Below are positions 638 to 45,216 of a stretch of 64,000 nucleotides of DNA, in pieces. Positions within the stretch are counted from its first letter, which is position 1. The number at the start of each line of letters is the position of its first letter. Made by a program: the position numbers and the translations under genes. Origin of the DNA: Oligoflexales bacterium (GTDB lineage Bacteria; Bdellovibrionota_B; Oligoflexia; Oligoflexales; Bog-1112); NCBI GenBank assembly GCA_045106415.1, contig JBGCEP010000004.1, positions 1 through 64,000 of the forward strand, written 5' to 3'. Under the pieces are notes generated by a model. It ran no database searches. It saw only the letters and a program-made list of their open reading frames with translations, and was not told where the DNA came from.

Positions 638-754
638 ATTTTAAATTTTCGAAAAAATGATGTTTGTTTGGTGATAAATTTTTTAAATTATACTATTTTT
701 TATCATGAATTTTTCATAGTATGCCATTCATCTTATTTTTAACGGGTTTTTATT

Positions 755-1147: not shown

Positions 1148-1240
1148 CTCTCTTGGAAAAGGAACTTTCTTCTTTTTTTGTTGCTATTTTTTTTAATAAG
1201 ACATTGAATCATTTCTTCGTGATTTGAATCGAGATTTTTT

Positions 1241-2164: not shown

Positions 2165-2370
2165 TGTGCCGCTGTTAGCTCATTTTAATAATGTAAAGAT
2201 TGTGATTAGCTGTATGTCTACTCGTCTGAAATATATCATGTTTTTGTATTGCTCATGACTGTAAGTGGTTTTTAAATTGTATTGAATGATTAGACTAGAA
2301 AATTCATGCTTTGTGAGGATAAAATTTCTTGTATTTATACTCAGAAACTGATAGATAATCCTACATATCT

Positions 2371-8225: not shown

Positions 8226-8746
8226 CTATTCCTCTTTGTTGATTGTAACTATGATTCGACATTTTATCTTAAAGACATAAATATGAATATTTATTTTATA
8301 GATATATTAAATTGTTATGGTTTTTTTTAAAAAAATTATGATTGAAACTTGTAACAAAAGGATCAGCGTTAGAAGAGGATTCAAGAGGTGAAATAAAAGC
8401 ATCAAGGTCTAATTGAGTCTTCTCAACTTTTTGGGCACTTTTTCAACATAGTTTCCGATACGAAAAAAGAAGGGAGTAGAAAGTTTGTCAGTGTAAAAAC
8501 TTCATCGTTAGACTTCTGTCTCAAATTCTGCATCTAATATTTATTCTTTAAATCAAAATTAGGTGTGATCAATGTTGGGCAAGAGAGCTCTCGGAATTCT
8601 CATCTCTTTGTGAGAGGTGCCTATTGGATATTACGTTTCTCAGGCGTGATCTTAAAATATTCTATATTAAATGCTTTTTATGTGAACATTGACGATCGGA
8701 ATAAACCAGTGTGAATAACCGCGCTAGGCGGCAGATTATTTAATCC

Positions 8747-8778
8747 CTCTGAAGAGAGATTTTGTGTTCTCTTCAGAG
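8747..8778 (-). terminator. Hairpin downstream of lepA (probable terminator)
   Basis: 11-bp stem CTCTGAAGAGA/TCTCTTCAGAG just after the lepA stop. No clear U-tract on the minus strand. Confidence 0.5.
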
Positions 8779-8791
8779 AAATTGTTTTGCG

Positions 8792-23412: not shown

Positions 23413-24768
23413 GTGCAGAGTTCTTACCAATCTTATTGTGTTGTCGAAGAGAGATTAACCGCATCTTTTAGGCGTCTTGGAGTTGAGATATCTGCTCATG
23501 ATGTCGAGCTTCGGGCTTCTCGAATTTTTCGAGCAATGTCGAAACCGTCCAGAGTGTTCCATGGTGTTTATCATGTCTTAGAGCTATCTGCACATGTTGA
23601 TGCTTTGGGCTGTTTGGCTGCTTTATATCATGATTTTATATATTTGCAACTGGATCATGGTTTCGGTGAATTTGCTGAACATCTCAGAGACACCTGCCGT
23701 TATGAGCAAGGCCGAGTATATTTACAGCCTGTTGGTAAAGAAGATGTTGTGCTTGCAGGTGTTTGTGAGATTTTCGGAGTCCCGCTAGAAGGAGGGCTTC
23801 TTGAGGTGTCTTTACAAAATGAATTTGTGAGTGCGCTCGTTGCCGTCTGTGAACTTCATTCTTTTATGACTCCGCGTGATCTTTTTATGATTGCAACTTG
23901 CATTGAAGCGACAATACCTTTTCGGGAAGAATCAGTATTTCCGAACTCTTTAGTGAAACGTTTAGGTACTGCGTGGAAACGTTTAGATGTTCCTATGGCA
24001 GACTCAGATATTGATGAAGCTATGTTTAGAGCGGTAGATCTTGCGAATCGAGATGTTTTAAATTTTTCGAGTGAGCAGGTGGAAGAGTTTTTGAAAAATA
24101 CCTGGGCTCTTATTTCAGAAGGTTCCCCTGAAATTCTAGAGGTTTCTTGCAGTGTGCGAGCCTGCAGGATTGCAATCTATAAAATGTTTGATTTTTTAAA
24201 CCATTTGCAGCCGCAGCAGATTTATCATTCTTATAAAAGATGTCCGCCAGATGAAGAGCTTCTGCTAAAAACCCAGATGTCTGAGAAGAATCTTATTCTT
24301 GCAAGATTGTATTTAATGGCGCAACTGTGTGCTTTGAACTTGTTGGATGCTGTCTCTGTCGAAACCGGTGGGAATACTTTGTTAATTAAATACGCAGGTC
24401 ATGTCTCGTCCTACGCCGAAATATCAGGACTTGAGCAGGAACTTTTAAAGCAAGCGAGTCATGTTGATTCGGATGTTTCTGTGGATCCTGTGCTTATGAA
24501 GCTCCTACAAAGTGAAAGCTTGAGATCATCAATTTTTATTTATACTTCTCCTATCGCTGGTTACCTTTATGGCACTTTAGGCCACAAAGGTTTAATGGAT
24601 TTCTATAATAAGTGCAGGCTTTATATGGACGGGGATAAGGATTCTTTTTCATATCTGAAAGATCTTCCTCAAAAAGTGATTTTAAGTGTGGTGAACGGAG
24701 TAGGAAATGTTGCCACATTACGAAAACCTAAAATCATACAGCTTACAAAACAGCTTCAGTTGCTGTGA
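23413..24768 (+). CDS. HD-motif metal-dependent hydrolase-like hypothetical protein
   Basis: FHGVYH...LAALYHDFIY, QNEF, IEATIPFR, LANRDV. Confidence 0.7.
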   Translation: MQSSYQSYCVVEERLTASFRRLGVEISAHDVELRASRIFRAMSKPSRVFHGVYHVLELSAHVDALGCLAALYHDFIYLQLDHGFGEFAEHLRDTCRYEQGRVYLQPVGKEDVVLAGVCEIFGVPLEGGLLEVSLQNEFVSALVAVCELHSFMTPRDLFMIATCIEATIPFREESVFPNSLVKRLGTAWKRLDVPMADSDIDEAMFRAVDLANRDVLNFSSEQVEEFLKNTWALISEGSPEILEVSCSVRACRIAIYKMFDFLNHLQPQQIYHSYKRCPPDEELLLKTQMSEKNLILARLYLMAQLCALNLLDAVSVETGGNTLLIKYAGHVSSYAEISGLEQELLKQASHVDSDVSVDPVLMKLLQSESLRSSIFIYTSPIAGYLYGTLGHKGLMDFYNKCRLYMDGDKDSFSYLKDLPQKVILSVVNGVGNVATLRKPKIIQLTKQLQLL

Positions 24769-24880: not shown

Positions 24881-25507
24881 GTGAAACTTTTAATTTTACT
24901 GTTGTTGTCTTTTAGTGTCTTAGGAGCGCAAGGCAACAGCGATTATGATAATGGCTTGAATCAAACCCAACAAAATGACGAAAACAACAACTTTTATGAG
25001 GACGCAGAAGAATATAATAAAAATATTGTTGATTCATCAGAAAATACTGTTAGTGATTTTGATGCTGATAAAGACCCGATTATACAAGAAATTATGGGCT
25101 GGAACGAGGGGGAATACTTATTTGTTATGACTCATAATGTGTATATTAGAAAAGGCCCAGGTTTATTTTATCCTACAGTGAAAAAACTTAATCATAATCA
25201 GAAGGTTAAGGTTTTAGGAAAAAGAAAAGGGGGGTGGGTCCTTGTGTCACATGGAGGTTGGGTTCCTTATAAATCTTTAGATATAAGGCGGTATGAAAAA
25301 CCACAGAAATATAGAGAAAGTTTGACCACTATTGTGCAGTTAGTGAGTGTTAAAGTGTACGGTGGGCCAGGTTTTCATTACCCGGTTGTTAGCAAAAGGA
25401 TGAAAGGAGATAGGGTGAGGATTATACGAAATCATGGTCCTTGGGCTCAAATTGGTGCATCGCAGTATGTTCTAAGAGGGTTGATTGACGGAAGAAAAAC
25501 ACGCTGA
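24881..25507 (+). CDS. Secreted protein with two bacterial SH3-like domains
   Basis: Signal peptide; VYIRKGPG..YP.V...GW and VYGGPG..YPVV...W repeats; GAGGAG RBS. Confidence 0.8.
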   Translation: MKLLILLLLSFSVLGAQGNSDYDNGLNQTQQNDENNNFYEDAEEYNKNIVDSSENTVSDFDADKDPIIQEIMGWNEGEYLFVMTHNVYIRKGPGLFYPTVKKLNHNQKVKVLGKRKGGWVLVSHGGWVPYKSLDIRRYEKPQKYRESLTTIVQLVSVKVYGGPGFHYPVVSKRMKGDRVRIIRNHGPWAQIGASQYVLRGLIDGRKTR

Positions 25508-25536
25508 AACCTTGAGCTAGTCGAAGGTTTCAGCGT
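25501..25536. terminator. Hairpin between convergent genes
   Basis: 13-bp stem ACGCTGAAACCTT...AAGGTTTCAGCGT. Confidence 0.7.
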
Positions 25537-25544
25537 GAGTTGTT

Positions 25545-26216
<672 letters not shown>

Positions 26217-26573
26217 AATTCACGCTCCCAAAGAGTTACTTATACTTTGACAGTGTTGACTTGATTTTCATGAAAACATAAAGGTTTTCATGAAGTAAGC
26301 TCCAGAAGCCAGCACCGTACTCGTTCGGAAATGGTCTCAGTAAATGATACTGTGCCAACCAGAACATACAACCAAAACAATACAGTGAAAATCTCTTGAG
26401 TGAAAGGGCAAGAAAGGTAAAATTAAAAATTCTCTCTTTTGTGAGGTGAAACATATCTTCTTTGTAAACCGTTTGAGAGAAATAAGCTGTGCTGTGCTAT
26501 GAAATTTGTCGTTCAAGAGGCGTGTAAATGTTAAAACCAACTCATGGTAGCGATATACTTTATGGAGTTTGAG

Positions 26574-27263
26574 ATGAAAAAAATTCAAGTGACTTATATT
26601 GTGGGCTTTTTTGTTGCAGCATTCATGCTGTTTTCTCTTCAAAAGCAAACATCTATGCGGCAAAGTATTGGTGGTGATGATTTTGCAAAAGCTTTAGTAG
26701 CGTGGGAAGAAAAAAACTTAGAGACGGCAGCTATGTTGCTTGGTGAAGATCACCATAAGTATATTGAACGTGAGCATGGGTGTGAGTTAGGAATTTCTGT
26801 CTTTGCTAAGCTGCATGAATATGAAAAAGTTGAGCGCATCGCTCATAGCTGTCGTCATAAAGTTCCCGCTATGGCTCTTGAAGGTTATGCATTCGCTTTG
26901 AGCTTTCAGGGTAAGTTTGATGAGGCGATTGCTACATTAGAAAAATTCGAAGGTTATGATCTTTTTACAGATGAAGAGAAAAAAAAATCACGCATGGCTT
27001 TAGCTAAGGTTTTGAATCTTAAAGGCCACTATCATAAATCAGTCGGTGTTTTGACGAAGCTTGCGCTTGAAGAGCATGGAGAGATGGTTTTACCTTTGCT
27101 TTTGAAAACACTGAAACAGTCTAAAAACTCAGAATTAGTATTGGAAGCAAGGCAAGCCTTTTCACAGAATGCTAAAATTCAAAGCCTTTTTGAGAAAAAG
27201 TGGAAGAATATTGAAAAATCGCACCACCAAATTGAAACAAAAAATATAGAACAAACGTCATAG
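26574..27263 (+). CDS. TPR-like membrane-anchored or exported protein
   Basis: N-terminal TM helix; TPR-like helices YAFALSFQGKFDEAIATLE and LAKVLNLKGHYHKS; GGAG RBS before ATG 26574. Confidence 0.75.
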   Translation: MKKIQVTYIVGFFVAAFMLFSLQKQTSMRQSIGGDDFAKALVAWEEKNLETAAMLLGEDHHKYIEREHGCELGISVFAKLHEYEKVERIAHSCRHKVPAMALEGYAFALSFQGKFDEAIATLEKFEGYDLFTDEEKKKSRMALAKVLNLKGHYHKSVGVLTKLALEEHGEMVLPLLLKTLKQSKNSELVLEARQAFSQNAKIQSLFEKKWKNIEKSHHQIETKNIEQTS

Positions 27264-27279
27264 AAAATGAAGGTGACTT

Positions 27280-28209
27280 ATGCCATTCCTAAAGCCTCCA
27301 AATCTTCAAAATCAGGCTCATATTAAGCAGAATGTGTTGGAAAAAACATTGTTTGTTCTTCCTCAAAATGACGGGGAAGCCATACGGTCTTTAGATATTT
27401 TAGAAGCTGTGAAAGCACCGTGGGTTCATCGAAGTTTACAATCTTGGGGAGCGGTTTTAGATCGAGAGGTTCTTCCCAGAGAGGTTCTTTCTAAGGTTGA
27501 TAGAGTCGTTACTTTCGAACTTCCTGCTAAAGTTCCTGAAAAAGGTGAGCTCTGTTGTGAGGAAAGACTCAAACTTCAAGGTGTTGATCTTAAAATTATT
27601 GATCACCACAGATATGGGTGGGTTGATAGATCTTCTTCTCAAAGTTCTTTGGAACAATTGTGTGCAGATATTGGCTGGAAGCTTGATCGTGTTGATATGG
27701 GAATTGCGGTGAATGATCGTTCGTATATTGGAGGGCTCTATGAAGCGGGATATACAACCGATGAAGTTGTAGAAATTCGATACTATGACTTAAAAGCTCA
27801 AGGTCACCATATGGGTGAGATTTTGGATTTAAGAAAAAAAGCTCAGCTTTGGATTCAAGATCACCATGCTGAAAAGGGCTTTTGGCTTTTAGAGCATTTA
27901 ACTTTTGATAAGAAATGGATTATGCAAGAGCTCGCTTTAAATGCACAAAAAAATGATGTTCATGCTCTTGAGAGGCAGCCTCATAAAATGAGTTTTTCAG
28001 GCTCGCCTGAAGTTGTTGCTGCGCTTAATGCATTGAAGCCCAAAGACTGGGGGTATAAAGGGCGGTATACTTGTTATTCTGGGGGAGACCCACAGACGTC
28101 ACAGTACTGGACGCTACGAGGAATGAAACCTTTAGGGAAACTCTTGAGTGAAAAAATATTTGCAACAGTAACGGATATACTGAAAAAAGAGGTGGCTGAT
28201 GAGAGATGA
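27280..28209 (+). CDS. DHH-family phosphoesterase, NrN-like
   Basis: Ordered motifs NDGE, WGA, FEL, IIDHH, SSLEQ, IAVNDRSYI, EIR..D..AQG. Confidence 0.7.
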   Translation: MPFLKPPNLQNQAHIKQNVLEKTLFVLPQNDGEAIRSLDILEAVKAPWVHRSLQSWGAVLDREVLPREVLSKVDRVVTFELPAKVPEKGELCCEERLKLQGVDLKIIDHHRYGWVDRSSSQSSLEQLCADIGWKLDRVDMGIAVNDRSYIGGLYEAGYTTDEVVEIRYYDLKAQGHHMGEILDLRKKAQLWIQDHHAEKGFWLLEHLTFDKKWIMQELALNAQKNDVHALERQPHKMSFSGSPEVVAALNALKPKDWGYKGRYTCYSGGDPQTSQYWTLRGMKPLGKLLSEKIFATVTDILKKEVADER

Positions 28210-29563
28210 GTTTGATCTGATTGTAATTGGAGCAGGATCTGGAGGCGTGAGAGCATCTCGAATAGCAGCCTCGTATGGTGCAAAAGTTGCTGTTGTGGAA
28301 GAGCGTTTTGCTGGGGGGACATGTGTCAACGTTGGGTGTGTGCCGAAAAAATTATTTGTTTATAGTGCCGAGGTTGGTGAGGCATTGAGACATGCGCAAG
28401 GGTATGGCTGGAATGCTGAAGGAAAGAGCTTCTCATGGGATACGTTGAGAGATCAACAACTAAAAGAAGTTGCACGTTTACAAGCTATCTATAAAAAAAT
28501 GCTGAATACAGCAGGTGTGGAATGGATTGATGGTAAGGCCTCATTGGCAGGGCCTCAAGAAGTGAACGTTGGTGGTGTGGTATATCGAGCGAAAAAAATT
28601 CTGATTGCATGTGGGTCACGCCCTAATCGTCCTCAGATACCAGGGATTGAAAAAGCATTGGTTTCTGATCATATGTTTAGTTTAGAGAAACTTCCACAAT
28701 CAGCAATTGTATTAGGTGGTGGTTATATAGGTGTTGAGTTTGCTGGTATTTTGAATGCTTTTGGCGTTAAAGTAACTTTAGTCATGAGAAAAGATACGGT
28801 GCTGAATCGCTTCGATAATGATGTCAGGCATCACGTGCATAACTGTGTTCAAGCACGAGGAGTTCAAATGGTGACTCATGAAAAACTTCAAGAAATTCTT
28901 GAGCACAAAAATGGATTTGAAGTAAAAACTGATAAAGGAACATATACAGCTGATCTTGTTTTAAATGCTTTGGGGCGAGTTGCTTATACCGAACAACTTG
29001 GTTTGGAAAATACGGAAATAACAACGAATGCTCAAGGTCATATTGAAGTTGATTCAGCAACTTTTCAAACAAAAGAGCCTTCTGTATATGCTGTTGGTGA
29101 TGTGACAGGGGGCTTACAACTCACCCCGGTGGCTTTAGCTGAGGGAATGGCATTTGCGCAACAACACTTTGGTGATATAAAGCCAGCTTTTATGCACGTT
29201 GCCGTGCCCACGGCTGTATTTTCACAGCCAGAAATAGGCACAGTTGGAATGACGGAAGAGGCAGCGTCTTTACAGTGTGATATTGACGTCTACATGAGTC
29301 AATTCAAACCACTGTCAGCAGCGTTGAGTGGATCTCAAGAAAAAGTACTGATGAAGTTGATTGTAGAACAAAAGACAGAAAAAATTTTAGGCCTTCATAT
29401 GGTAGGGCCGCATGCAGGTGAAATGCTGCAAGGGTTTGCTGTTGGGGTCACCGCAGGAATGACGAAAAACCAAATGGATCAAACTGTTGGAATTCATCCT
29501 ACCATGGCTGAAGAGTTTGTCACAATGAGAGAGCCCACCCGCTCAGTACAGAAGGTGTCGTAA
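28199..29563 (+). CDS. gor: Glutathione-disulfide reductase
   Basis: Motifs GAGSGG, GGTCVNVGCVPKK, GGGYIGVEFA, QLTPVA, GIHPTMAEEF. Confidence 0.93.
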   Translation: MRDEFDLIVIGAGSGGVRASRIAASYGAKVAVVEERFAGGTCVNVGCVPKKLFVYSAEVGEALRHAQGYGWNAEGKSFSWDTLRDQQLKEVARLQAIYKKMLNTAGVEWIDGKASLAGPQEVNVGGVVYRAKKILIACGSRPNRPQIPGIEKALVSDHMFSLEKLPQSAIVLGGGYIGVEFAGILNAFGVKVTLVMRKDTVLNRFDNDVRHHVHNCVQARGVQMVTHEKLQEILEHKNGFEVKTDKGTYTADLVLNALGRVAYTEQLGLENTEITTNAQGHIEVDSATFQTKEPSVYAVGDVTGGLQLTPVALAEGMAFAQQHFGDIKPAFMHVAVPTAVFSQPEIGTVGMTEEAASLQCDIDVYMSQFKPLSAALSGSQEKVLMKLIVEQKTEKILGLHMVGPHAGEMLQGFAVGVTAGMTKNQMDQTVGIHPTMAEEFVTMREPTRSVQKVS

Positions 29564-30855
29564 TGGATCATTTTGAATTGTTTAAAAACCATTTAAAACA
29601 ACGTGAGCAACAAGCTCAAGATCTTTTGAGTGTTCTCAAATATGACTCTATTATTTTTGACTCTGGAGTGGAGTCTTATTATGCTGAAGATGATCAAACC
29701 TACCCTTATCGCCCAGCGCCAGCGTTTAAGTCTTGGTGTCCAGAGGTTTCTTCTGGAAGTGCTATTCATGTCAAACTAAATTCTTCTGCTCATCTGTTAA
29801 GGGTGATTCCGCAAGATTTTTGGCATGCGAGTCCAGAAGATGGAGAGTGGGTAAAGGCTTTTGAAGAATCAAAAGTGTTTTCAGATAGAAAATCTTTAGT
29901 AGATAGTTTGCCTAAAACTGGTAGACACCTTTGGATAGGCCCAGGATTGGAAATGAAGGATGTGTCGCAATGGACATTGAATTTAGAAGCAGCGGTGGCT
30001 CACCTCCATTGGGACAGAGGCTGTAAGACTGCCTATGAAATTGAGTGTTTGCGAGACGCTAATCGAATTGCAGCTTTAGGGCATGTGGCAGCAAGAGAAA
30101 AGTTTTTAGAGGGGGGATCTGAGCGTCAGATTCATCATGCCTATTTAGTGGCAACGTCCGGGCTAGAGTCTGAGCTCCCATATAATAATATTGTATGCCT
30201 AGACCAACATGCTGCAACACTGCATTATCAATACAAGTCCTCTGAGAGAGTTGAAGCAGGAGTTCTGCTTATTGATGGAGGGCATAGCGTGCAAGGTTAT
30301 GGGTCTGACATTACAAGAACTTGGGTGCATTATCGCGCACCAGAAACGTTTCAGTTGATTCGGAATGACCTCGAGGTTTTACAAAAAAAATTAGCCAATC
30401 AAGCTGTTGTTGGAATGAACTTTGCTGATCTGCATCTTATGTCTATTGATGGTATTGGACAGATTTTACTTGATCACAATGTTTTAAAAAATACAGCACA
30501 AGGAGAACAAGAATTCCGTTCTTTGGTACGATCATTTTACCCACACGGTCTTGGCCATATGCTCGGTGTCCTTGTTCATGATGTTGCTGGTCGGCAAAAG
30601 AATAGAGCTGGTGCAGCATGTGACCCTCACCCTGAAGATGAAAAATTACGCACCAACAGAGAGTTGAGAAATAAAGAGGTCATCACTGTTGAACCAGGAA
30701 TTTACTGGATCCCTATGCTGTGGAAAAATTTAGACTCAAGGTATTTGAATTTACCACTCATGGAAGAACTCACTCTGTGGGGAGGTATGAGGATTGAAGA
30801 CAATGTGGTTGTTGGCCAGAAACCAGAAAATTTAACGCGTGAGTTTCTAGCATAA
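29563..30855 (+). CDS. pepQ: Xaa-Pro dipeptidase (M24B prolidase)
   Basis: Motifs LHY, LIDGG, SDITRT, PHGLGH.LG..VHDV, TVEPGIY, GGMRIED. Confidence 0.88.
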   Translation: MDHFELFKNHLKQREQQAQDLLSVLKYDSIIFDSGVESYYAEDDQTYPYRPAPAFKSWCPEVSSGSAIHVKLNSSAHLLRVIPQDFWHASPEDGEWVKAFEESKVFSDRKSLVDSLPKTGRHLWIGPGLEMKDVSQWTLNLEAAVAHLHWDRGCKTAYEIECLRDANRIAALGHVAAREKFLEGGSERQIHHAYLVATSGLESELPYNNIVCLDQHAATLHYQYKSSERVEAGVLLIDGGHSVQGYGSDITRTWVHYRAPETFQLIRNDLEVLQKKLANQAVVGMNFADLHLMSIDGIGQILLDHNVLKNTAQGEQEFRSLVRSFYPHGLGHMLGVLVHDVAGRQKNRAGAACDPHPEDEKLRTNRELRNKEVITVEPGIYWIPMLWKNLDSRYLNLPLMEELTLWGGMRIEDNVVVGQKPENLTREFLA

Positions 30856-30950
30856 AAGCTTACAAAATTGGAGCGGCAAAAATAGCAGTCTGCATGTGCC
30901 AGGATTATGACGGATAATAGTAGAGAACCGTCAAATTTTGGAGGGCTTGA

Positions 30951-31946
30951 ATGAATCAAGTGCTGTCTCAGAATGAAGTTGATGCTCTTTTGTCTGCAGT
31001 ATCTGATAACAAAGTCGATGCTGATGAACCTGATCTAGGCGACGGTGGTGGCGGTGAAGCCTCTGGGGCCGGTGTTGTCCAGTATGATTTGGCGAACCAA
31101 GACAGAATTATTCGGGGGCGCTTGCCTACCTTAGATATTATTCATGACCGTTTTATCCGGCTTTTTCGAGTAACGCTATCTAATGGTTTGAGGAAAATGG
31201 CAAACTTAAGTGTGAACTCGACAGGGCCGTTGAAATTTTCAGAGTTTATGAATTCTTTGCCTCTTCCCTCTTGCCTTAATATCTTGAGACTAGATCCATT
31301 AAGAGGGGCTGCTATTTTGGTGATTGAATCAAAGCTTTTGTATGCTTTGGTAGATAGTTTTTTTGGCGGCAATGATGTGCCTTATACAAAAATTGAAGGA
31401 AAAGACTTTACGCAAATTGAAATTAAAATAGCAAGAAGAGTAGTTCTTTCTGCTTTAGATGATTTGGAACGTGCGTGGGAGCCTGTCTACCCTCTTAAGG
31501 TCGGTTATTCTAGAACAGAAATTAACCCTCAGTTTGTCGCTGTTGTCCCTCCTTCTGATGTTGTGATTGCGACAACGTTTGATGTGGAACTTGAAAAAGT
31601 ATCAGGGACAATTAAAATTGTAATTCCATACGCGACGCTAGAACCGATTAAATCGAAGCTATCTGTTGGGTTTCAGAGTGAACAACTTGAGGTTGATCAT
31701 ATTTGGATTAACCGTATTAAAGAGCAATTAATGAATACCTCTGCAAACCTATTGGTTCGTTTGGGAGAGGCGCATATCTCTGTCGGGGATTTAGCGAATC
31801 TTGAAACTGGCGATATTTTGCAGCTTGATCATGATGCCTCAAACCCTCTAGATATTATGGTTGAAGGTGTCCCGAAGTTTAGGTGTATACCAGGTGTGCT
31901 GAAAGGTCACAGGGCGGTCAAAGTAACAGAGTCTTTGATTGAGTGA
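30951..31946 (+). CDS. fliM: Flagellar motor switch protein FliM
   Basis: CheY-binding N-terminus VLSQNEVDALL, RGRLPTL, EINPQF, PYATLEPI, and a C-terminal SpoA domain. Confidence 0.97.
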   Translation: MNQVLSQNEVDALLSAVSDNKVDADEPDLGDGGGGEASGAGVVQYDLANQDRIIRGRLPTLDIIHDRFIRLFRVTLSNGLRKMANLSVNSTGPLKFSEFMNSLPLPSCLNILRLDPLRGAAILVIESKLLYALVDSFFGGNDVPYTKIEGKDFTQIEIKIARRVVLSALDDLERAWEPVYPLKVGYSRTEINPQFVAVVPPSDVVIATTFDVELEKVSGTIKIVIPYATLEPIKSKLSVGFQSEQLEVDHIWINRIKEQLMNTSANLLVRLGEAHISVGDLANLETGDILQLDHDASNPLDIMVEGVPKFRCIPGVLKGHRAVKVTESLIE

Positions 31947-37338: not shown

Positions 37339-37959
37339 ATGAAGCATTTTATTTTTGATTTTGATGGTACGTTGGTCGATTCTCGATATCTTGTGTGGGA
37401 GTATATTGAGGATCGAGCAAATGACCGTAAGTTAACTCCTGAAGATTTAAGGGAATACAGCGCTACTGAGGTGATACCTGCTTTGGGAATTAAGCCATGG
37501 GAAGTACCGCAGTTGATGATTCAAGTGCGCAGAGCTTTTTTAGAGCGCCTTGATCAGCAGCCTATTATTGAGGGTGTTGTAGAGTGCTTTCGAGAGTTAA
37601 GAAAACAAGGGCACTGTATTCACGTTGTGTCATCTAATGCTAAAGAAAATATAGATAAATTTTTACAGTTGCATGAAATTGATGATTGCGTTGATCGAGT
37701 GATCAGTTTTTTTGGCTTATTTGGCAAAGCTAAAATTCTGAGAAATTTAATGAGGGACCTACAAGCAACCCCTGGTGATGTTATGTATATTGGAGATGAA
37801 ACTCGAGATATTGTTGCCGCTCAAAAAGCAAAGATATCCAGCTTAGCAGTGACATGGGGGTATAACTCGGAGAATGTCCTTGCTGCAACGGATCCAAGTT
37901 TTTTAGCGAGAAATCCATCTGAAATGATAGGTATTTTGTCAAAACGAGGCGAGTTGTGA
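37339..37959 (+). CDS. HAD-family hydrolase (phosphoglycolate phosphatase-like)
   Basis: Motifs FDFDGTLVDS, VSSN, K, YIGDETRD, VTWGY. Confidence 0.9.
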   Translation: MKHFIFDFDGTLVDSRYLVWEYIEDRANDRKLTPEDLREYSATEVIPALGIKPWEVPQLMIQVRRAFLERLDQQPIIEGVVECFRELRKQGHCIHVVSSNAKENIDKFLQLHEIDDCVDRVISFFGLFGKAKILRNLMRDLQATPGDVMYIGDETRDIVAAQKAKISSLAVTWGYNSENVLAATDPSFLARNPSEMIGILSKRGEL

Positions 37960-38702
37960 ACCCTGTCCACCTGATTCCAATGCGAGAAGATAACTATACT
38001 TTTGCTATCCAAAGTAAGCTAAGCCCGAAAAAAGTTCTTATTATTGATCCCTCTACTGAAAAAATTGTCGATGAGATCAAACGACGAAAATGGACAGTTG
38101 TCGGGATTTTTAATACACACCATCATTATGATCATGTGGGTGGGAATCAAGAACTCGCTTCAAAATGGGAATGCCCGGTTTATGGAGCTGATCTTGATAG
38201 AGAACAAATTCCTGCTTTAAGTCATAGTTTAAAAGATGGCGATAAAATAGAAATCGCAGGATGGAAGATAAGAGTTTTAGCGACTCCAGGTCATACTCTT
38301 GGGGCCTTGTGTTTTATTTTCGATGAAATCAAGGCTGTTTTTGTTGGAGATACGATGTTTGCTATGGGATGTGGGCGGTTGTTCGAAGGATCCCCACAGC
38401 AGATGCTGGAAAGTTTACTCAAAATAGGATCCTTACCTGAGGATTATAAAATTTATTGTGGACATGAGTATACGGAGCAAAATGTACGTTTTGCTCTTTC
38501 GGTTGAATCATCGTCTTTTTTAAAAAAATATGCTGAAGGTATAAAAAATATCCGACGGGCACAAAGGCCCACTATTCCAACTCAAGTGTCTGATGAGTGG
38601 CAAGGAAACCCCTTTTTAAGAGTTACTCTACCGTCAAAGCATTGTACTGACGATGCTGTGAAAAATTTCACGCTTTTGCGTGAAAGAAAAGATGTATTTT
38701 AG
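37956..38702 (+). CDS. gloB: Hydroxyacylglutathione hydrolase (glyoxalase II)
   Basis: Motifs THHHYDHVGG, TPGHT, GDTMFAMGCGRLFEG, CGHEYT, NPFLR. Confidence 0.92.
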   Translation: MNPVHLIPMREDNYTFAIQSKLSPKKVLIIDPSTEKIVDEIKRRKWTVVGIFNTHHHYDHVGGNQELASKWECPVYGADLDREQIPALSHSLKDGDKIEIAGWKIRVLATPGHTLGALCFIFDEIKAVFVGDTMFAMGCGRLFEGSPQQMLESLLKIGSLPEDYKIYCGHEYTEQNVRFALSVESSSFLKKYAEGIKNIRRAQRPTIPTQVSDEWQGNPFLRVTLPSKHCTDDAVKNFTLLRERKDVF

Positions 38703-38723: not shown

Positions 38724-40910
38724 TCAGTTGCCTGAACTTATCTTCAAAGCACAAGAGTTAAGTTCTGCAATGATTTTTTTTGATGTAATTGGTTTTGTGA
38801 CAAACCGATTCATGCCAGCAATAAAACATCTTTCTTTATCTTCAGGTAAGGCGTTTGCCGTCATTGCAATAATAATTGCATTTTTTGATGCATGATTTTC
38901 AGAGTTTCTAATCTGTGTGGTGGCATCAACACCATCCAAATTTGGCATCTGCATATCCATTAAAATCACATCGAATTTTTGATTTCTTGATTTTGTTACT
39001 GCTTCAACTCCATCATGAGCGAATACAAAAGAAAGTTTAAATTTTTCTAAAAAAGCACCTAAAATATCCCGATTTGTACTGTTGTCTTCAGCGACAAGTA
39101 TTTGTAGTTTTTGGGCTTCTGAGGTTAGTTTATGAGTATCGTTATTTTCTAAAATATGATTTTTTGTGAGACTCATTTCGATAGCAAAAGAAAAAGTAGT
39201 CCCTTCATTCTGTATAGAGTGGACATGTATTTCTGATCCCATAAGTTCAATAATGCGTTTGCAAATTGTTAAACCTAACCCTGTTCCACCATATCTACGA
39301 GTTGTAGAAGAGTCTTCTTGTTCAAAAGGCTGGAAAAGTTTGTTGAGGCGATGAGGGGAAATACCTATTCCTGTATCTTGCACAGAAAATTTTATTGTAT
39401 GGTGTGATTCTGTTTTCTTAATTGTTTCAACAGTTGTAAGGATATGACCTTCGTGCGTAAATTTCACAGAATTTCCGATAAGGTTTAATAAAATCTGGCT
39501 TAATCGCGTGGGATCACATAAAAGAAGAGGACTATCAAAATTTTTGAACTCAGTTCTTATTGCTACAGATTTTTTTTGACCTATAGAAATGAATATGAGC
39601 GCTACTTCTTGTGTAATTTTTTGAATATCAGATGGAAGACTTTCTAAAGAAAGTTTTTTTTCTTCGATTTTTGAAAAATCTAGAATATCACTAATAATAG
39701 AAAGTAAAAGTTTGCTGCTTTTTTCTATAACACGTAGCTTCTCTTTGGGGTAATTTGATGCTTCGTCGTTTATCATGAAATCAGCAGACCCAATTATACC
39801 ATTGAGGGGAGTGCGGATTTCATGGCTCATATTTGCTATGAATTCTGAGCGGGCTATTAAAGCTTGTTCTGCACGGTTTTTTTCTTTCTCTAAATCAGCA
39901 GTCCTGATTTTTACTTTTTCTTCAAGATGACTGTTTGCTTTTATATTTTCAGTGTTTTTTTCGTCAAATGCAATAGCAATAATTTCAAAATCATCATTGG
40001 AACCTATTGGGTAACAGCTGATATTGCCCTCTTTAAGGTGCGTGTTTTGAATTCTATCAACTAAAACTTCAATAGGTCCGCTAATAAGAAATCCTATTTT
40101 TTTTGCTAAATAAATAGATGTAAAAGTAGAAAATAAGATAGATAATAAAATTAGGACTATAGATGTAATTAATATTTGATAATAAGGGTTTTTTTCGTTG
40201 AAAACATTTATTTTTATATTTGGGCTTTTAATGATAGAGGTGTTTTTTGTGAAGTGAGAACTTCCTGCTTTATATAAGTTATTGATGTCTCTATCTGATG
40301 AGAATATTTTGATGTGATTATAATATAGTTCGAAGTATTCTTCTTTTTCATGCAATTTTTTTAGCGATAAATTTAAGTCGAAATAAGCTGCGAGAAAACC
40401 TTGTTTTTTACCATAGTATTGAATTGGAGCAACAAGGAACATAGAGTTTTTAGATAAAATTTTAAAAACTTTATGTTGTGAAGATTTTAAGACTATTTTG
40501 TCTTTAAATTCTTCTAAATAATTCTCTCCTGTGTAAGCAAGAAGAGATCCGTGATTATCAAAAATAGATAATCCTAATAAATCAGGTCTTTTTTTATCTT
40601 GAATAAAGCTATCAAAGCTTTGAAAATTGTATTCTAACAAGGAAGTAATAATCCTTGGTTCAGAGGCTAGGTTTTTTATTTGATTTGCAAGAATATCAAA
40701 AGTGATATCTATTTGTTGTGTTTTATGGTTTACGGCTATTCTGTCACTTTTTTTAATTTCATTTTGTAATGTATATAAATAAACAGATGAACTTAGAATA
40801 AATGATGTTGCCATCACCGAAATGAGTGAAAGAAAAACATAACGGTTTATTCTTTTGGAAAAACGACCTTTGTAAGAATTTACATTGTTATTTCCCAACA
40901 ATATCTCCAT
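38724..40910 (-). CDS. Membrane hybrid sensor histidine kinase (periplasmic sensor, HisKA, HATPase, REC)
   Basis: Two TM helices; FIANMSHEIRTPLNG, NLIGNSVKFT, DTGIG, GGTGLGL; receiver EDN...DMQMP...KP. Start uncertain (40910 or 40943). Confidence 0.92.
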   Translation of the reverse strand: MEILLGNNNVNSYKGRFSKRINRYVFLSLISVMATSFILSSSVYLYTLQNEIKKSDRIAVNHKTQQIDITFDILANQIKNLASEPRIITSLLEYNFQSFDSFIQDKKRPDLLGLSIFDNHGSLLAYTGENYLEEFKDKIVLKSSQHKVFKILSKNSMFLVAPIQYYGKKQGFLAAYFDLNLSLKKLHEKEEYFELYYNHIKIFSSDRDINNLYKAGSSHFTKNTSIIKSPNIKINVFNEKNPYYQILITSIVLILLSILFSTFTSIYLAKKIGFLISGPIEVLVDRIQNTHLKEGNISCYPIGSNDDFEIIAIAFDEKNTENIKANSHLEEKVKIRTADLEKEKNRAEQALIARSEFIANMSHEIRTPLNGIIGSADFMINDEASNYPKEKLRVIEKSSKLLLSIISDILDFSKIEEKKLSLESLPSDIQKITQEVALIFISIGQKKSVAIRTEFKNFDSPLLLCDPTRLSQILLNLIGNSVKFTHEGHILTTVETIKKTESHHTIKFSVQDTGIGISPHRLNKLFQPFEQEDSSTTRRYGGTGLGLTICKRIIELMGSEIHVHSIQNEGTTFSFAIEMSLTKNHILENNDTHKLTSEAQKLQILVAEDNSTNRDILGAFLEKFKLSFVFAHDGVEAVTKSRNQKFDVILMDMQMPNLDGVDATTQIRNSENHASKNAIIIAMTANALPEDKERCFIAGMNRFVTKPITSKKIIAELNSCALKISSGN

Positions 40911-42966
40911 TTTTACTAAACTTTGCAAAATTAATATCTTCACTACTTAAAGCATCTTGTTTTTCGATATTAAAAAAAGGTTTGTGATATAAACGAAAGA
41001 GACCGTCGTATGTTTGCATAGATCGAAGATGTTTTTTTATTGAATTTCTTTCATAAGATAATCCTTTTTGAATAGCAAAAGAAAGCATTTTGATAAGCTC
41101 ATAAGTATGAATAGTTGCGAAAGGAGCAGGTGTGACACGGTTCTGAGTTGAGAAGTGTCGTGTGTATTTTTTGAAGAAATCATAAGCTTTGGTGTTATGT
41201 TTTTTGTTGTCTGGCTTAATATATGTTTGAAGAAAGACAAGAGGAACATTTTTAAGTTCTTTTTGAACTTGTGTCCAAAATCTACCACCTAAAATACCCC
41301 AATGAGAAACGATAGGTATTGGTTTTTTAAGCTGAGTAATTTTTTTGATGAGATGAACTCCCTCAGGGGAATTCCCAATATAAATAATGACATCGGATGA
41401 TGAGTTCTCTAAATATTGAATGATTTGAGAGAAAGATGATTCGCCCCACTTAAACCAGTAGGGTTTAATGAGATTTATATTCTTAGATTTTGCTTCTTTT
41501 GATATAGCTGAAAAATTACCTCGACCCCACGGGGTATCTTCTAAGATTAAAGAAATATTTTCTCCGTGCTGAGTGGCCTCTTTTAATAGAGCTTTTCCTG
41601 CATATTCATCACGCACTGAAAATCGAAAGTGATATGGATTTTTTTTAGAGATGATATTTGAGGCAGCAGCCCAAGGAATTAGATAAGGAATTTTATTTTC
41701 TTGGACGAATTTTGCTTCTTTTAAAATGACAGGGCTGTGCATTCCTCCTAAAAGAGAAACAACGAGAGGGTCTTTTGACAGTTCTTTTATATTATGAATT
41801 CCATTAGCTGGAAACCCTCCGTGATCTCTAATGTCGAGAACTAATTTTTTTTTCAAAAAATCATCACCATGATTGATTTCACTAACAGCAAGTTCGGCTC
41901 CTCTTATAATAGCTAGAGCAGAGTCTTTTGCTTCTAGTGAGAAACTTATATTGACACCTATCGCAATATTATTTTCTAAAGATTTAATGATATCTGGATT
42001 AATTAAATCTTTAAAAGAATTTAAAAGATGTCTGTAGCGAAAATAAAGTCCAGACATTTTTTTAAAAATTGAAGCTTTAAATGTTTGATCCATGATTGAA
42101 ATATGAATGTTTTTTTCTTTCATTTTCTTAATAATAAGACGTTCGTTATCTAAAGAATCTTTTCTTTGAAAATCTTTAGATCGCAGAAGTGATTTTTCAA
42201 TAATATTTTTGATGTTCTTGGGAATGTCTTTAAAAAAAACATCACTCATAAGTGATATATATGCAATGTATCCGTGATTAGATAGAGATATGTGTTTGTG
42301 AGTTTCATATAGCTTCATAGCACTGAATGAGGACAATGAATTTTCTTGAATATCAAATTCATTACTTTTAAATGAACTGTGAAGAGAGTGAAAATCAATG
42401 AATTTTGGGAAAGCGTGAAGATGGATAACTTGTGATTTTAAAATATGACTTTGCATGACACGGAATATTTTTCCGCTAAAATCATTAATACCATGTAGAC
42501 GGGATTTAGAAATCATCTGCTTAAATCCTGATTCCCAATAAGAGACAGGAGATAAGCCATGTTTTAAAAGTTTTTGCGATATTTTTTTACCAAAAGGGCC
42601 ATCGAGTGCTGTGTGTATTTTTTTTCTGTTATTAAATAAGTAAGGTATATCTAATATTCTGATCTGAGGGGCAAGAGAGGTTATTTTTGATGTTGGTGTA
42701 ATAGAAATAGAGAGCTTTCCGTCTTGAACCATTTTTATCATCTGAACATCTGTACCTAATTCTTGATTAGGGTGAATTTTAACATGAATTTTATTATGAG
42801 AATCTCTTTCGACTATTTCTTTGAAGTAAGTAGCTCCTCGATGTATTGAGCTATTTACAGGCATATTGTGTCCAAGGCTTATTTGATAAACTTTATCGTT
42901 TAATGAAATTTTGTAGACAGTAGCACAAAGAACGAAAAAGCATAAATAAAATGGAATTTTATTCAT
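40888..42966 (-). CDS. Fusion of a DctP-type TRAP solute-binding domain and a LivJ-type (PBP1) binding domain
   Basis: N-half GHNMP...HPNQELG...WESGFKQ...FRVM...QEN matches DctP. C-half GAELAVSEIN...RDHGG...LGGMHSP...IPWAA...FRFSVRD matches PBP type 1. Confidence 0.82.
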   Translation of the reverse strand: MNKIPFYLCFFVLCATVYKISLNDKVYQISLGHNMPVNSSIHRGATYFKEIVERDSHNKIHVKIHPNQELGTDVQMIKMVQDGKLSISITPTSKITSLAPQIRILDIPYLFNNRKKIHTALDGPFGKKISQKLLKHGLSPVSYWESGFKQMISKSRLHGINDFSGKIFRVMQSHILKSQVIHLHAFPKFIDFHSLHSSFKSNEFDIQENSLSSFSAMKLYETHKHISLSNHGYIAYISLMSDVFFKDIPKNIKNIIEKSLLRSKDFQRKDSLDNERLIIKKMKEKNIHISIMDQTFKASIFKKMSGLYFRYRHLLNSFKDLINPDIIKSLENNIAIGVNISFSLEAKDSALAIIRGAELAVSEINHGDDFLKKKLVLDIRDHGGFPANGIHNIKELSKDPLVVSLLGGMHSPVILKEAKFVQENKIPYLIPWAAASNIISKKNPYHFRFSVRDEYAGKALLKEATQHGENISLILEDTPWGRGNFSAISKEAKSKNINLIKPYWFKWGESSFSQIIQYLENSSSDVIIYIGNSPEGVHLIKKITQLKKPIPIVSHWGILGGRFWTQVQKELKNVPLVFLQTYIKPDNKKHNTKAYDFFKKYTRHFSTQNRVTPAPFATIHTYELIKMLSFAIQKGLSYERNSIKKHLRSMQTYDGLFRLYHKPFFNIEKQDALSSEDINFAKFSKNGDIVGK

Positions 42967-43008
42967 AAGGCCACCTAGTATAAAAAGATCTAGTTACAGA
43001 TAAGGTAT

Positions 43009-43036
43009 CTTTCGGTTTTATTTTGGATAAAATTTA
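43009..43036 (-). promoter_or_regulatory. Sigma-28-like promoter for the DctP-fusion / kinase pair
   Basis: Minus strand reads TAAA-N16-ACCGAAAG. Confidence 0.4.
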
Positions 43037-43207
43037 CCATTCTAATAATGGTCTTGCGATTAAAAATTGGTTTTCAAATCATTTTATTTATAGAGGTAAG
43101 TCAAAGATGTTGGGGTTATTGATTTTTATCATGTTGTTTTTTTAAAAGATTTAATAATTTTTTTGTATTTTTTAAATAAGATTCCCCCTTCAATTTTTCT
43201 TTCTGTC

Positions 43208-43235
43208 TTACGTGTTAGCGCTATTGCTCCGATAA
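43208..43235 (+). promoter_or_regulatory. Sigma-28-like promoter for the SpoIIE operon
   Basis: TTAC-N16-TCCGATAA; strong -10, weak -35. Confidence 0.45.
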
Positions 43236-43251
43236 GCTAAATAAAGTATTC

Positions 43252-45216
43252 GTGATAGGTTGTTCAGTGGTACCACAGGTGCATTTTTCGCAGTCTTTAA
43301 CATTTAAGCTGTTTCTATTAATGGCTTGTACCTTACTTGGTACTGTTGCTGTTATTACTTATAGAAATGCTGTTGAATTTCAGAATATTTTATGGGGGCA
43401 GCTCAGTGATAAAGCACAAACAGATAGTGAAACAGCTCTTAATTCGATTTCAAGCCAAGTCGATTTTTGGAAAGGTCATGTTCAGCAAATAGTAAAAGAA
43501 GCTGTTCAAACACGAAGATATTCAGCCCCAGCGGCAAAAGCTTTGATTAAAGCTTCTTCAGATATTGTATCTTTTCATCTTTTAGAAGAGAAAAATAAAA
43601 ATGTAAAAACCTTCACTTTTTTATTCACAGACAATAAAAATCAGAATCAGTTTGAAGATAAAGACCCAGATAAAATTGAAAAAATTATACGTTATGACAA
43701 CCAACTGTGGGTAAGAAAATCCTCAAAGGCTAAAAAATTAAAACAAATTTATTTAGTCAATGCTTCAACACGTCCTAAGCTTGGACTATTGAGGATAGCT
43801 GTTCCCGCAGTTGTGGGGAAGAAGAGAGTATGGGGAATTCTCACGGTCTGGCAAAGACCTTTGGCGTCGAGTTTACCAGTAAGTAAACAAACGGAAGCAT
43901 ATGTGATTAATAAGCGCGGAAGGCTGCTCGTCTCACAAGGAAGAAATATATTAAAACCGAAATCACTCCTAAAAGATGGTGTGACTCGTCTTGCTTTAAA
44001 AAGTTCTTCAAATGCAGGAATTTTCCGTGAAAAAAGAAAAGGCAGTAACATTTTAGCAGCCTATGCACGAGACGATGCACTTGGTTTTTCCGTTATCTTG
44101 AAAAGAGACCCTTCTTCAGGTATTGAGCAAATTAATCGAGAGCTTATGAGAACTTTACTTATGACTTCATTTGCTTTTTTAATCGCTATTTTTATAACAT
44201 GGGTTTTTGCAGACCAGCTCACAAGAAATTTGAGAATTTTAGTCGATTTAACCCAATTAATTGCATCAGGAAATTTTCAAGCGAGAGTGCCAGCAACCTC
44301 GAAGGATGAGGTTGCTGTGTTAGGAAACTCTATTAATAATATGTCGTCACGGATTGAAGAGCTTATGTCGGCTCAAATGGAGGCTGTGAGACAAGAAAAA
44401 GAGTTAGAAACAGCAAAAATGGTGCAAGAAACACTTTTCCCTAAAGAGAATATTAATCACGTATCTATTCGATTGACGGGTTGCTATGAACCAGCATCTG
44501 AATGTGGTGGTGATTGGTGGGGGCATTTTCAAACACAGAGCGGATTGCAGTTTTTTTGTGTAGCAGATGCGACGGGTCACGGGGTTGCTGCTGCTATTGT
44601 CACTGCATTAGCATTTTCATCTTGTATGACATTTGCTGAAGCTTGGTCTGAACAATATGCTGAAGATCCCGCTAAAATGCTGGAAAAAATGAATGAAGTT
44701 ATGTGGAGTGCGGGACGAGGAGTCACGACAATGACTTTTTTTGCTGCTTTTCTTAATCCTGAAACAAAAACACTAACTTTTGCAAACGCTGGACATAACC
44801 ATCCTTTTTTAATGCCTAAGTATGATACAGACCCTCGTTTGAATTCGAATAAAAAAGTAAAACCAAGAAGTTTAGTTTTACAAGCTAGAGGTATCCCTTT
44901 AGGTTTAGGTCCTAATGCATCATATAAAAACAAAGCTATTGAATGTGTGAATGATGACAAGATTTTTCTTTATACAGATGGTCTTATTGAATGTACAAAC
45001 CACCAAGGTGAAATGTATGGCAAAAGAAAAATGATGAAAAAAGTAGAGTCTCTTGTGGATCAGGACATTGATACAATTCGAGAGATAGCTCTAGAAGACG
45101 CAATGAACTTCTTTGAAGGCTACCCACAGGATGACGATATTACAGTTGTCGTTGCAGATATTATGCCAACAACGCCACTGAAAAAAGTGCAAATCGAAGG
45201 TGAGATGGATTCATGA
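43252..45216 (+). CDS. Membrane PP2C/SpoIIE phosphatase with Cache-like sensor and HAMP domain
   Basis: Two TM helices; HAMP (GNFQARV...DEVAVL...N.M); SpoIIE motifs GGDWW, DATGHG, NAGH, YTDGL, DDIT. Exact start uncertain. Confidence 0.92.
   Translation: MIGCSVVPQVHFSQSLTFKLFLLMACTLLGTVAVITYRNAVEFQNILWGQLSDKAQTDSETALNSISSQVDFWKGHVQQIVKEAVQTRRYSAPAAKALIKASSDIVSFHLLEEKNKNVKTFTFLFTDNKNQNQFEDKDPDKIEKIIRYDNQLWVRKSSKAKKLKQIYLVNASTRPKLGLLRIAVPAVVGKKRVWGILTVWQRPLASSLPVSKQTEAYVINKRGRLLVSQGRNILKPKSLLKDGVTRLALKSSSNAGIFREKRKGSNILAAYARDDALGFSVILKRDPSSGIEQINRELMRTLLMTSFAFLIAIFITWVFADQLTRNLRILVDLTQLIASGNFQARVPATSKDEVAVLGNSINNMSSRIEELMSAQMEAVRQEKELETAKMVQETLFPKENINHVSIRLTGCYEPASECGGDWWGHFQTQSGLQFFCVADATGHGVAAAIVTALAFSSCMTFAEAWSEQYAEDPAKMLEKMNEVMWSAGRGVTTMTFFAAFLNPETKTLTFANAGHNHPFLMPKYDTDPRLNSNKKVKPRSLVLQARGIPLGLGPNASYKNKAIECVNDDKIFLYTDGLIECTNHQGEMYGKRKMMKKVESLVDQDIDTIREIALEDAMNFFEGYPQDDDITVVVADIMPTTPLKKVQIEGEMDS

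Follow-up and report, generated by a model that had tools for sequence, protein, structure and literature searches.

The locus described here occupies positions 26574..30855 of a 64,000-nucleotide (nt) stretch of DNA from an Oligoflexales bacterium (GCA_045106415.1, JBGCEP010000004.1), hereafter called the window, which corresponds to contig C4 of a 2.95-Mb genome assembled in 89 contigs and 93.8% complete. Reading of its open reading frames (ORFs) reveals four tightly packed genes on the same (+) strand, encoding a tetratricopeptide repeat (TPR)-like protein, a DHH-type phosphodiesterase of 309 amino acids (aa) that resembles NrN, glutathione-disulfide reductase (gor) and Xaa-Pro dipeptidase (pepQ) (Table 1). 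NrN of Bacteroides fragilis hydrolyses SAM-AMP, a conjugate of S-adenosylmethionine (SAM) and adenosine monophosphate (AMP), to SAM and AMP (PMC10600005). [quoted passage not shown] The protein of the window, as shown below, belongs to such a branch.

The TPR-like gene ends 16 nt before the NrN-like gene, the TGA codon of which (28207-28209) lies behind the ATG of gor at 28199, so that the two genes overlap by 11 nt, and the start of pepQ overlaps the end of gor by 1 nt; both overlaps had been noted in the original prediction and are borne out by direct reading of the sequence. The same prediction placed the NrN-like gene behind a TPR-like one, which is right as to position, but the 239-aa product is only weakly TPR-like, as no TPR model reaches its Pfam cut-off (best E-value 0.013), and 26574 is an internal ATG of a frame that starts at 26544. 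This product has no PADLOC match either. The GC content (0.385, against about 0.40) indicates a native composition.

Table 1. Genes and signals of the locus, with positions in the window
Feature	Position	Strand	Evidence
NrN-like two-domain DHH phosphodiesterase gene, 309 aa	27280..28209	+	ORF, PADLOC, PDB, AF2, trees
Shine-Dalgarno-like AAGGTGA, ending 3 nt 5' of the ATG at 27280	27270..27276	+	Direct reading
Upstream 239-aa gene, N-terminal hydrophobic helix, weak TPR-like signals	26544..27263	+	ORF, Pfam
Glutathione-disulfide reductase (gor)	28199..29563	+	NF004776, 554.5 bits (cut-off 480)
Xaa-Pro dipeptidase (pepQ)	29563..30855	+	NF010133, 361.9 bits (cut-off 339)

The 309-aa protein is a member of the NrN family

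The gene product had been likened to NrN on the basis of a series of seven motifs, all of which are present in the order given, namely N30-D31-G32-E33, W56-G57-A58, E80-L81, I106-I107-D108-H109-H110, S122-S123-L124-E125-Q126, I142..I150 (IAVNDRSYI) and E165-I166-R167..D170..A173-Q174-G175. These motifs are not due to chance, because 30 columns are invariant in an alignment of 33 homologues that are 32-43% identical to the window protein, including N30, D31, E33, W56, G57, A58, E80, D108, H109, H110, S122, L124, E125, Q126, N145, D146, R147 and G175. The metal-binding and catalytic residues D31, E33, D108-H109-H110 and D146 are intact.

Not a single Pfam-A or NCBIfam model matches the protein at E ≤ 1, the Pfam DHH and DHHA1 models included, and only two PADLOC models do so, both of them for CorA-associated DHH proteins: C3a116 (E 3.1e-10, protein residues 24-293 against model positions 4-232 of 235) and DHH_CorA (E 6.5e-10). 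In a sequence search of the PDB (E ≤ 0.001), only the NrN entries 9lq9, 9lqa, 9lqb and 9lqc were matched, at E-values of 4.4e-5 when the single sequence served as query and 1.6e-15 when the family profile did. The neighbours of the protein in the ESM Atlas are labelled 'hypothetical protein' without exception.

The AlphaFold2 (AF2) model of the protein, which was built on the 33-sequence alignment, has a predicted local distance difference test score (pLDDT) of 91.5 and a predicted template modelling score (pTM) of 0.86. Foldseek ranked NrN entries at the top (E 4.5e-11 to 8.7e-11, target template modelling (TM) score 0.64-0.67), followed by NrnA, GdpP and RecJ at E-values of at least 1e-6 and TM scores of 0.35-0.43; the best NrN match has a TM score of 0.66, as compared with 0.36-0.40 for NrnA and GdpP. 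Likewise, VIA-align superposed the model on NrN with a Z score of 18.1 (root mean square deviation 3.9, 239 of 245 residues aligned, 22% identity), whereas the next family reached 11.2, PggH 10.4, NrnA 7.5-8.3 and GdpP 6.3-7.0. The motif series is hence that of NrN rather than of NrnA, GdpP or RecJ, as stated in the original prediction: NrN is the only sequence match in the PDB and the first match in both structural comparisons. Since the best match is not an ordinary NrnA or DHHA1 protein, the NrN-like assignment stands, and the 309-aa protein is a member of the NrN family by homology and fold.

The D85/H86/H87 triad of NrN, which was mutated by Chi et al. 2023 (PMC10600005), aligns with D108-H109-H110, and the residues altered in the NrN crystal mutants E21A and D119A (so named in the entry titles) appear from the aligned ranges to correspond to E33 and D146. 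Compared with NrN, the window protein carries an N-terminal extension and inserts at residues 84-91, 113-116 and 180-183.

Absence of a detectable type III CRISPR partner

When the model of the NrN-like protein was run against its own genome, the window gene was the single match. The claim that the 64 kb harbours no cas10/Cmr gene, CorA gene or CRISPR array agrees with the Pfam survey, the genome-wide searches and a k-mer scan, none of which found any there, and neither Cas10 nor CorA was found above threshold in the rest of the assembly. In particular, the Csm1 model (TIGR02578; cut-off 170) gave one match of 28.6 bits, in which its HD part alone aligns to an ORF of 526 aa; the Cmr2 model (TIGR02577) reached 14.9 bits, with stop codons within the match; the Cas10b and Cas10 models of PADLOC matched nothing at E ≤ 1; and for CorA the best score of Pfam PF01544 was 12.7 bits against a cut-off of 27, with no match to the PADLOC model. 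It was also observed that no CorA-family Mg2+ channel is detected in this genome, and that the same PF01544 and PADLOC searches match 13-14 of 14 control genomes.

The k-mer scan of the genome for CRISPR arrays returned eight candidates, none of them on C4. Four were inspected, one on C16, one on C79 and one at either end of C69, and all four proved to be tandem repeats within coding sequence; the other four candidates (3-4 copies each) lie on C27 (two), C30 and C62. The inspected repeats (C16:1-1600, the end of C79 and both ends of C69) are long, in frame, and code for acidic (D/E/N-rich) or lysine-rich peptides, and such coding repeats at contig ends mimic CRISPR-type spacing in a k-mer scan.

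Five further genomes carrying the NrN-like gene, two of them single-contig, were searched as well. Csm1 matches there were confined to the HD region, at 26-31 bits in ORFs of about 530-550 aa, and the PADLOC CorA model had no match. Among 95 genomes of the order, Cas10b occurs in one, which has no NrN-like gene, so that none of the 10 carriers has it.

A separate branch of the NrN family

Among 1.84 billion representative proteins, a profile search yielded 822 relatives at E ≤ 1e-3, 447 at E ≤ 1e-10 and 79 at E ≤ 1e-30. When one genome of each species was scanned for the motifs, 27 related loci (L007-L033) were identified. Eight of these (L026-L033) are distant, and in five of the eight the relative is fused or adjacent to CorA according to PADLOC, with Cas10 present in four of the five. 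Behind the NrN-CorA fusions of L028 and L029 come Cas10 and Csm proteins; L031 and L033 have CorA together with Cmr1, Cas10b, Cmr3 and Cmr4; and in L032 CorA adjoins the match. CorA was not found in the stretches examined of L026, L027 and L030. A named example comes from plasmid pHALHY02 of Haliscomenobacter hydrossis, where the match lies inside a 'hypothetical protein' of 897 aa, encoded two genes upstream of an annotated Cas10/Cmr2, which is followed by Cmr3, Cmr4 and Cmr6.

L027 holds a stand-alone NrN-like gene that falls on the CorA side of the tree; it stands back to back with a gene for an NYN-domain protein and near a mad3/mad8-like gene (coordinates 677-1435 (-), 1411-2292 (+) and 7726-9585 (-)), in a 10-kb stretch without CorA or Cas10. 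The NYN-domain family also occurs in CorA type III loci.

Three trees were computed. A quick LG+G4 tree of 125 domains separated the window protein and all six relatives fused to Macro/hydrolase modules (described below) from all 15 CorA-fused or CRISPR-linked sequences, with a Shimodaira-Hasegawa-like approximate likelihood ratio test (SH-aLRT) support of 98, and a quick mixture-model tree of 67 sequences gave the same split with a support of 96. In a careful IQ-TREE analysis of 67 sequences (LG+C20+F+G4), 12 CorA-fused or CRISPR-linked sequences were separated from the six Macro/hydrolase-fused ones with an ultrafast bootstrap (UFBoot) support of 98 and an SH-aLRT of 93, the bootstrap being not fully settled (correlation 0.982) and four of the sequences having long branches. 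This split was recovered in 100% of 200 bootstrap trees. In the same tree, the window protein lies in a fusion-free set of 11 sequences (UFBoot 100, SH-aLRT 99) and in a set of 28 (100/99) that also includes five of the Macro-fused forms. The window protein is therefore outside the CorA-linked NrN branch, in a well-supported separate branch.

The catalytic motifs NDxE (D31/E33), D108-H109-H110 and N145-D146 are conserved at 0.95 or above in both branches. Conservation of at least 0.80 on both sides extends to P28, N30, D31, E33, W56, G57, E80, D108, H109, H110, Y112, R117, S122-Q126, N145, D146, R167, D170, Q174, G175, G241 and G268, and A58, P82, E94, R147 and G269 stand at 0.70-0.78 on the CorA side. 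The residues conserved only in the branch of the window protein cluster in its second half (E217, L218, G225, S240, D253 and Y266), with L127/C128, W133 and D139 as further branch-specific positions.

Distribution and gene neighbourhood

The NrN-like gene is found in 10 of the 95 genomes of the order (its own included). Counting only the 58 high-quality genomes, 7 have it, and of the 44 genera it is represented in 7. Full-length relatives with 33-46% identity are held by 19 of the 27 loci (L007-L025), mostly from assemblies of Oligoflexales, Bdellovibrionota and Bacteriovoracaceae, and neither Cas10 nor CorA lies within two genes on either side in any of the 19. The gene context is shared with L007 only, in which an SH3 gene, a weak TPR-like relative in the same position (41.5% identity over 65 aa), the NrN-like gene, pepQ (40.5% identity, after a gap of 117 nt) and fliM (87.6% identity) occur. 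The inheritance of the NrN-like gene is patchy, yet vertical and chromosomal.

The coupling to gor and pepQ that had been proposed for the gene exists physically in this genome and is not conserved, since gor was found in none of the 27 loci and pepQ adjoins the gene in only one; when the 307 ORFs of 28 loci were clustered, the NrN-like protein itself was the only one to recur in more than two loci. For this reason the arrangement says little about function, and a functional link to gor-pepQ is rejected. The overlaps represent local operon packing inherited within one family, and not a conserved pathway.

The immediate neighbours of the gene in the relatives are mostly housekeeping genes, such as those for prolyl-tRNA synthetase (ProRS), pyruvate kinase, glucose-6-phosphate isomerase (PGI), aconitase and threonyl-tRNA synthetase (ThrRS), and in L016 a HigB-like gene lies beside it. 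Running PADLOC on 42 neighbouring ORFs gave matches to defence-type models at only two of the 19 close relatives, namely AbiU in L019 and a PDC-M37B/DolB-like giant AAA+ protein in L024. No match to the NrN-like protein was found among the INPHARED phages, and IMG/VR contained just three 47-residue matches at an E-value of 3e-4. The one match in PLSDB is a canonical NrN-CorA fusion beside Cas10/Cmr2.

A second glutathione-linked neighbour was observed in relatives of another family, in which the NrN-like gene shares its first 7 nt with gloB, encoding hydroxyacylglutathione hydrolase (L011:7213-7956, L012:7045-7980). The gloB gene of the window is located 9.7 kb downstream (37956-38702), and there it is gor that overlaps the end of the NrN-like gene. 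The two neighbours are independent of each other and may be a coincidence.

Domain fusions among the relatives

Among 180 relatives examined for extensions longer than 150 aa, 32 carry CorA, 13 an N-terminal domain of about 350 aa and seven an alpha/beta-hydrolase/Macro module. Pfam (E ≤ 1e-4) detected nothing in the ~350-aa domain, nor in 28 of the 34 fused representatives scanned.

The hydrolase and MacroD-like module was seen in P0039, P0040, P0042, P0043, P0044, P0050 and P0092, fused either before or after the NrN-like domains. A separate gene encodes it in L015 (6067-7833), overlapping the start of the neighbouring NrN-like gene by 4 nt, and the modules are 39-54% identical to one another and to the product of this gene. 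Their Macro part is similar to MacroD-type hydrolases of ADP-ribose and O-acetyl-ADP-ribose (DR_2288, E 1.2e-12; YmdB, E 9.5e-10; AF1521, E 2e-6), and their hydrolase part resembles esterases.

The ~350-aa domain characterizes a sister clade of NrN-like proteins, namely P0075, P0086, P0088, P0092, P0098, P0102, P0111, P0119, P0127, P0137, P0166, P0171 and P0176, of which P0092 additionally bears a C-terminal Macro domain. An AF2 model of this domain from P0098 (pLDDT 81.8) matched atypical kinase folds, i.e. Fam20C (Z 11.8), CtkA (11.3), Golgi casein kinase (11.3), CotH (9.9) and HipA (8.7); Foldseek support and ESM Atlas hints for this kinase-like match are weak. For the branch, these fusions may serve as a lead to a metabolism of adenylyl or ADP-ribose conjugates, and are no evidence on the window protein itself.

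Other features of the window

A Pfam survey of 44 further ORFs of the window revealed a chromosomal core, including MurB, ThrA, LepA, DnaJ, FliM, PFK, gloB and flagellar genes. Rfam gave nothing exceeding chance over 25400-31200, and the 364-nt leader 5' of the TPR-like gene has a folding z score of -1.84. Upstream of the locus, a 223-aa ORF on the minus strand (25545-26216) has a very acidic N-terminal half with runs of D, E and N, a lysine-rich tail of AKKxAKKT repeats and no Pfam match; a 112-aa 'FLATFLAV' ORF on the plus strand (25540-25878) mirrors it and is probably no gene. Two genes upstream of the TPR-like gene lies a 451-aa ORF (23413-24768) that matches neither Pfam nor PADLOC. The GC content falls to 0.305-0.316 over 40001-44000, against about 0.40 elsewhere, in a region covering the end of a hybrid histidine kinase, a 692-aa fusion of DctP and Peripla_BP_6, and the start of a HAMP-SpoIIE phosphatase.

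Proposed activity and alternative explanations

Three roles had been suggested for the protein, i.e. a stand-alone relative with a substrate left unspecified, an off-switch acting in trans on a remote type III system, and an anti-signalling enzyme. The evidence favours the first, and the second is unsupported, as neither Cas10 nor CorA was detected here or in five relatives. The reading that we prefer, and to which we assign a probability of roughly 0.55, is that the gene encodes an active, non-CRISPR phosphodiesterase of the NrN type, which would release AMP from its conjugate with an adenosine-type small molecule. A divalent-metal site in the N-terminal domain would hydrolyse the phosphodiester between 5'-AMP and a hydroxyl of the small molecule, and AMP would be set free much as when SAM-AMP is split into SAM and AMP, provided that the enzyme works as NrN does. 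The molecule that is cut is probably related to SAM-AMP.

In the DHH/DHHA1 enzymes, such as NrnA, GdpP and RecJ, the N-terminal domain binds the metals and the C-terminal domain holds the substrate. Nearly all residues conserved in the branch of the window protein are also conserved on the CorA side, and most of those conserved only in the former lie in this substrate-holding domain. This pattern suggests that the chemistry and the AMP site are shared with NrN, that the pocket is modified where it receives the rest of the substrate, and that the group left after the release of AMP would differ from, or be broader than, SAM. Moreover, because sister lineages fuse the enzyme to MacroD-like, esterase-like and atypical-kinase-like domains, its role may be to turn over conjugates of the adenylylated or ADP-ribose type, and not to scavenge RNA.

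Several observations weigh against this reading. SAM-AMP itself may be the substrate, because nearly all residues of the CRISPR NrNs are kept. None of the Macro, esterase and kinase-like partners is present in the genome of the window, so the clue from the fusions may not transfer to the window protein; the Macro part from L015, used as a query, likewise matched none of the 95 genomes of the order, in a search in which no positive control matched either. The Cas10 model PDLC01418 had no match in the five carrier genomes, at a threshold at which the controls were also silent, and plasmid or unbinned contigs with a type III locus could be missing from the 89-contig assembly. In addition, all three trees are unrooted.

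The DHH/DHHA1-type fold that the protein has in common with PggH (Z 10.4) and NrnA (Z 7.5-8.3) could also be that of a general nucleotide scavenger, i.e. a nanoRNase, pAp phosphatase or pApA/pGpG hydrolase, replacing NrnA, PggH or the GdpP catalytic domain. This would suit the housekeeping genes in its neighbourhood as well as a genome that has no NrnA-sized canonical DHH protein, the sole PF01368 match being a 543-aa ORF on C27. A general nanoRNase role is nevertheless unlikely, because Orn is present (231.4 bits against a curated cut-off of 106), because the patchy occurrence of the gene in 10 of 95 genomes is unlike that of an essential scavenger, and because NrN, the closest characterized relative, leaves pApA and cA2-6 uncut according to the available text of Chi et al. 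2023 (PMC10600005). The outright failure of the Pfam DHH and DHHA1 models on the 309-aa protein also speaks against it.

Atypical-kinase-like and MacroD-type domains both occur in enzymes with nucleotidylated or ADP-ribosylated targets. As domains similar to both (Fam20C, CtkA, CotH and HipA folds on the one side, MacroD-type domains on the other) are fused to sister proteins, and as NrN-like chemistry turns X-O-P-5'-adenosine into X-OH and AMP, the enzyme might conceivably free AMP or a related nucleotide from a macromolecule, for instance by de-AMPylation of a protein hydroxyl or by removal of adenosine-cofactor caps from the 5' ends of RNAs or abortive transcripts. We regard this as slightly more doubtful still: the argument is purely inferential, the fusion partners do not occur in the window genome, the literature on SAM- or SAH (S-adenosylhomocysteine)-capped RNA gave nothing relevant, and the compact, closed two-domain fold, like that of NrN, suits a small ligand.

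The anti-signalling role fares worse. In favour of an enzyme that destroys the SAM-AMP of a foreign type III CRISPR-CorA system, for example in a prey cell or a competitor, or that guards against a foreign signal, the NrN signature is kept almost wholly and the gene is distributed patchily, as conflict genes typically are; two of the 19 close relatives adjoin defence-type genes (the AbiU and PDC-M37B/DolB-like genes of L019 and L024), and phage SAM-AMP lyases have been proposed as anti-CRISPRs (PMC12255297). It is nonetheless improbable in view of the vertical synteny with L007 (SH3 gene, TPR-like gene, NrN-like gene, pepQ and fliM), the native GC content, the mostly housekeeping neighbours and the phage databases, which gave no match in INPHARED and only three short ones in IMG/VR. 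Furthermore, the N-terminus shows neither a signal peptide nor a hydrophobic stretch by eye. The cell that detects foreign RNA produces SAM-AMP in its own interior, where it would be out of reach of an enzyme in the cytoplasm of another cell.

That the protein turns off, in trans, a type III CorA system of the same genome, or is a relic of a lost one, is very improbable. True CRISPR NrNs are indeed homologous (five of the eight distant loci with CorA fused or adjacent and four with Cas10, pHALHY02 of Haliscomenobacter being a named example), but no Cas10 (best 28.6 bits, HD part, cut-off 170), CorA or array was found in this 93.8%-complete genome, the five other carriers are alike, Cas10b occurs in one of 95 genomes of the order, and 30 invariant columns over 33 homologues (about 32-43% identity) in a well-supported separate branch are unlike a relic.

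What emerges from the present comparison is a well-supported non-CRISPR branch of the NrN family that is intact, conserved and unannotated, and that resides in CRISPR-free genomes. A bolder extension of the AMP-releasing activity proposed for the window protein, which we put forward tentatively, is that the NrN fold is no CRISPR speciality at all: the whole branch might consist of AMP-releasing phosphodiesterases of a non-CRISPR pathway, in which AMP is joined to, and released from, molecules of the adenosine type, of the ADP-ribose type or bearing an amino acid, the conjugates including SAM-AMP-like ones, and the MacroD-like, esterase-like and Fam20/CotH-like kinase-fold domains might be other enzymes of that pathway. 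If this were true, bacteria without Cas10 would contain molecules similar to SAM-AMP. The branch supplies candidates for testing whether such conjugates are made or degraded outside CRISPR immunity, and it may help to explain what NrN evolved from. It also calls for caution, in that PADLOC-type matches alone should not score such genes as defence components.

Comparison with known systems

Along its entire length the window protein has the compact two-domain fold of B. fragilis NrN (239/245 residues, Z 18.1, 22% identity), and the two share the DHH triad and the NDxE, ND, SxLEQ and R..D..AQG motifs. It is longer than NrN (309 against 260 aa), and it differs in that no CorA, Cas10 or CRISPR was found in its genome, in its position in a separate branch and in having conserved residues of its own in the C-terminal domain. 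The NrN-CorA fusions of type III-B and III-D systems (L028, L029, P0059, P0082 and pHALHY02) contain a homologous phosphodiesterase domain, which is found with the motif patterns of the window family; unlike the window protein, they have a CorA-like channel attached, and stand beside cas10 and cmr or csm genes, and all 12 CorA-fused or CRISPR-linked sequences lie beyond the branch supported at 98/93.

The Macro- or esterase-fused proteins (P0040, P0042, P0043, P0044, P0050 and P0092) and the kinase-like-fused P0098 group belong to the same branch of the family as the window protein, five of the six Macro/hydrolase-fused forms being in the 100/99 clade with it. The window protein, in contrast, consists of the single domain pair, and its genome yielded no homologue of the Macro module. 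Finally, NrnA, PggH, the catalytic domain of GdpP and RecJ (PF01368 and PF02272) have the DHH architecture and the metal-dependent phosphodiesterase chemistry in common with the window protein, but their structural scores against it are much lower (Z 6.3-11.2, TM 0.35-0.46) and the Pfam DHH and DHHA1 models, which describe these enzymes, are silent on it.

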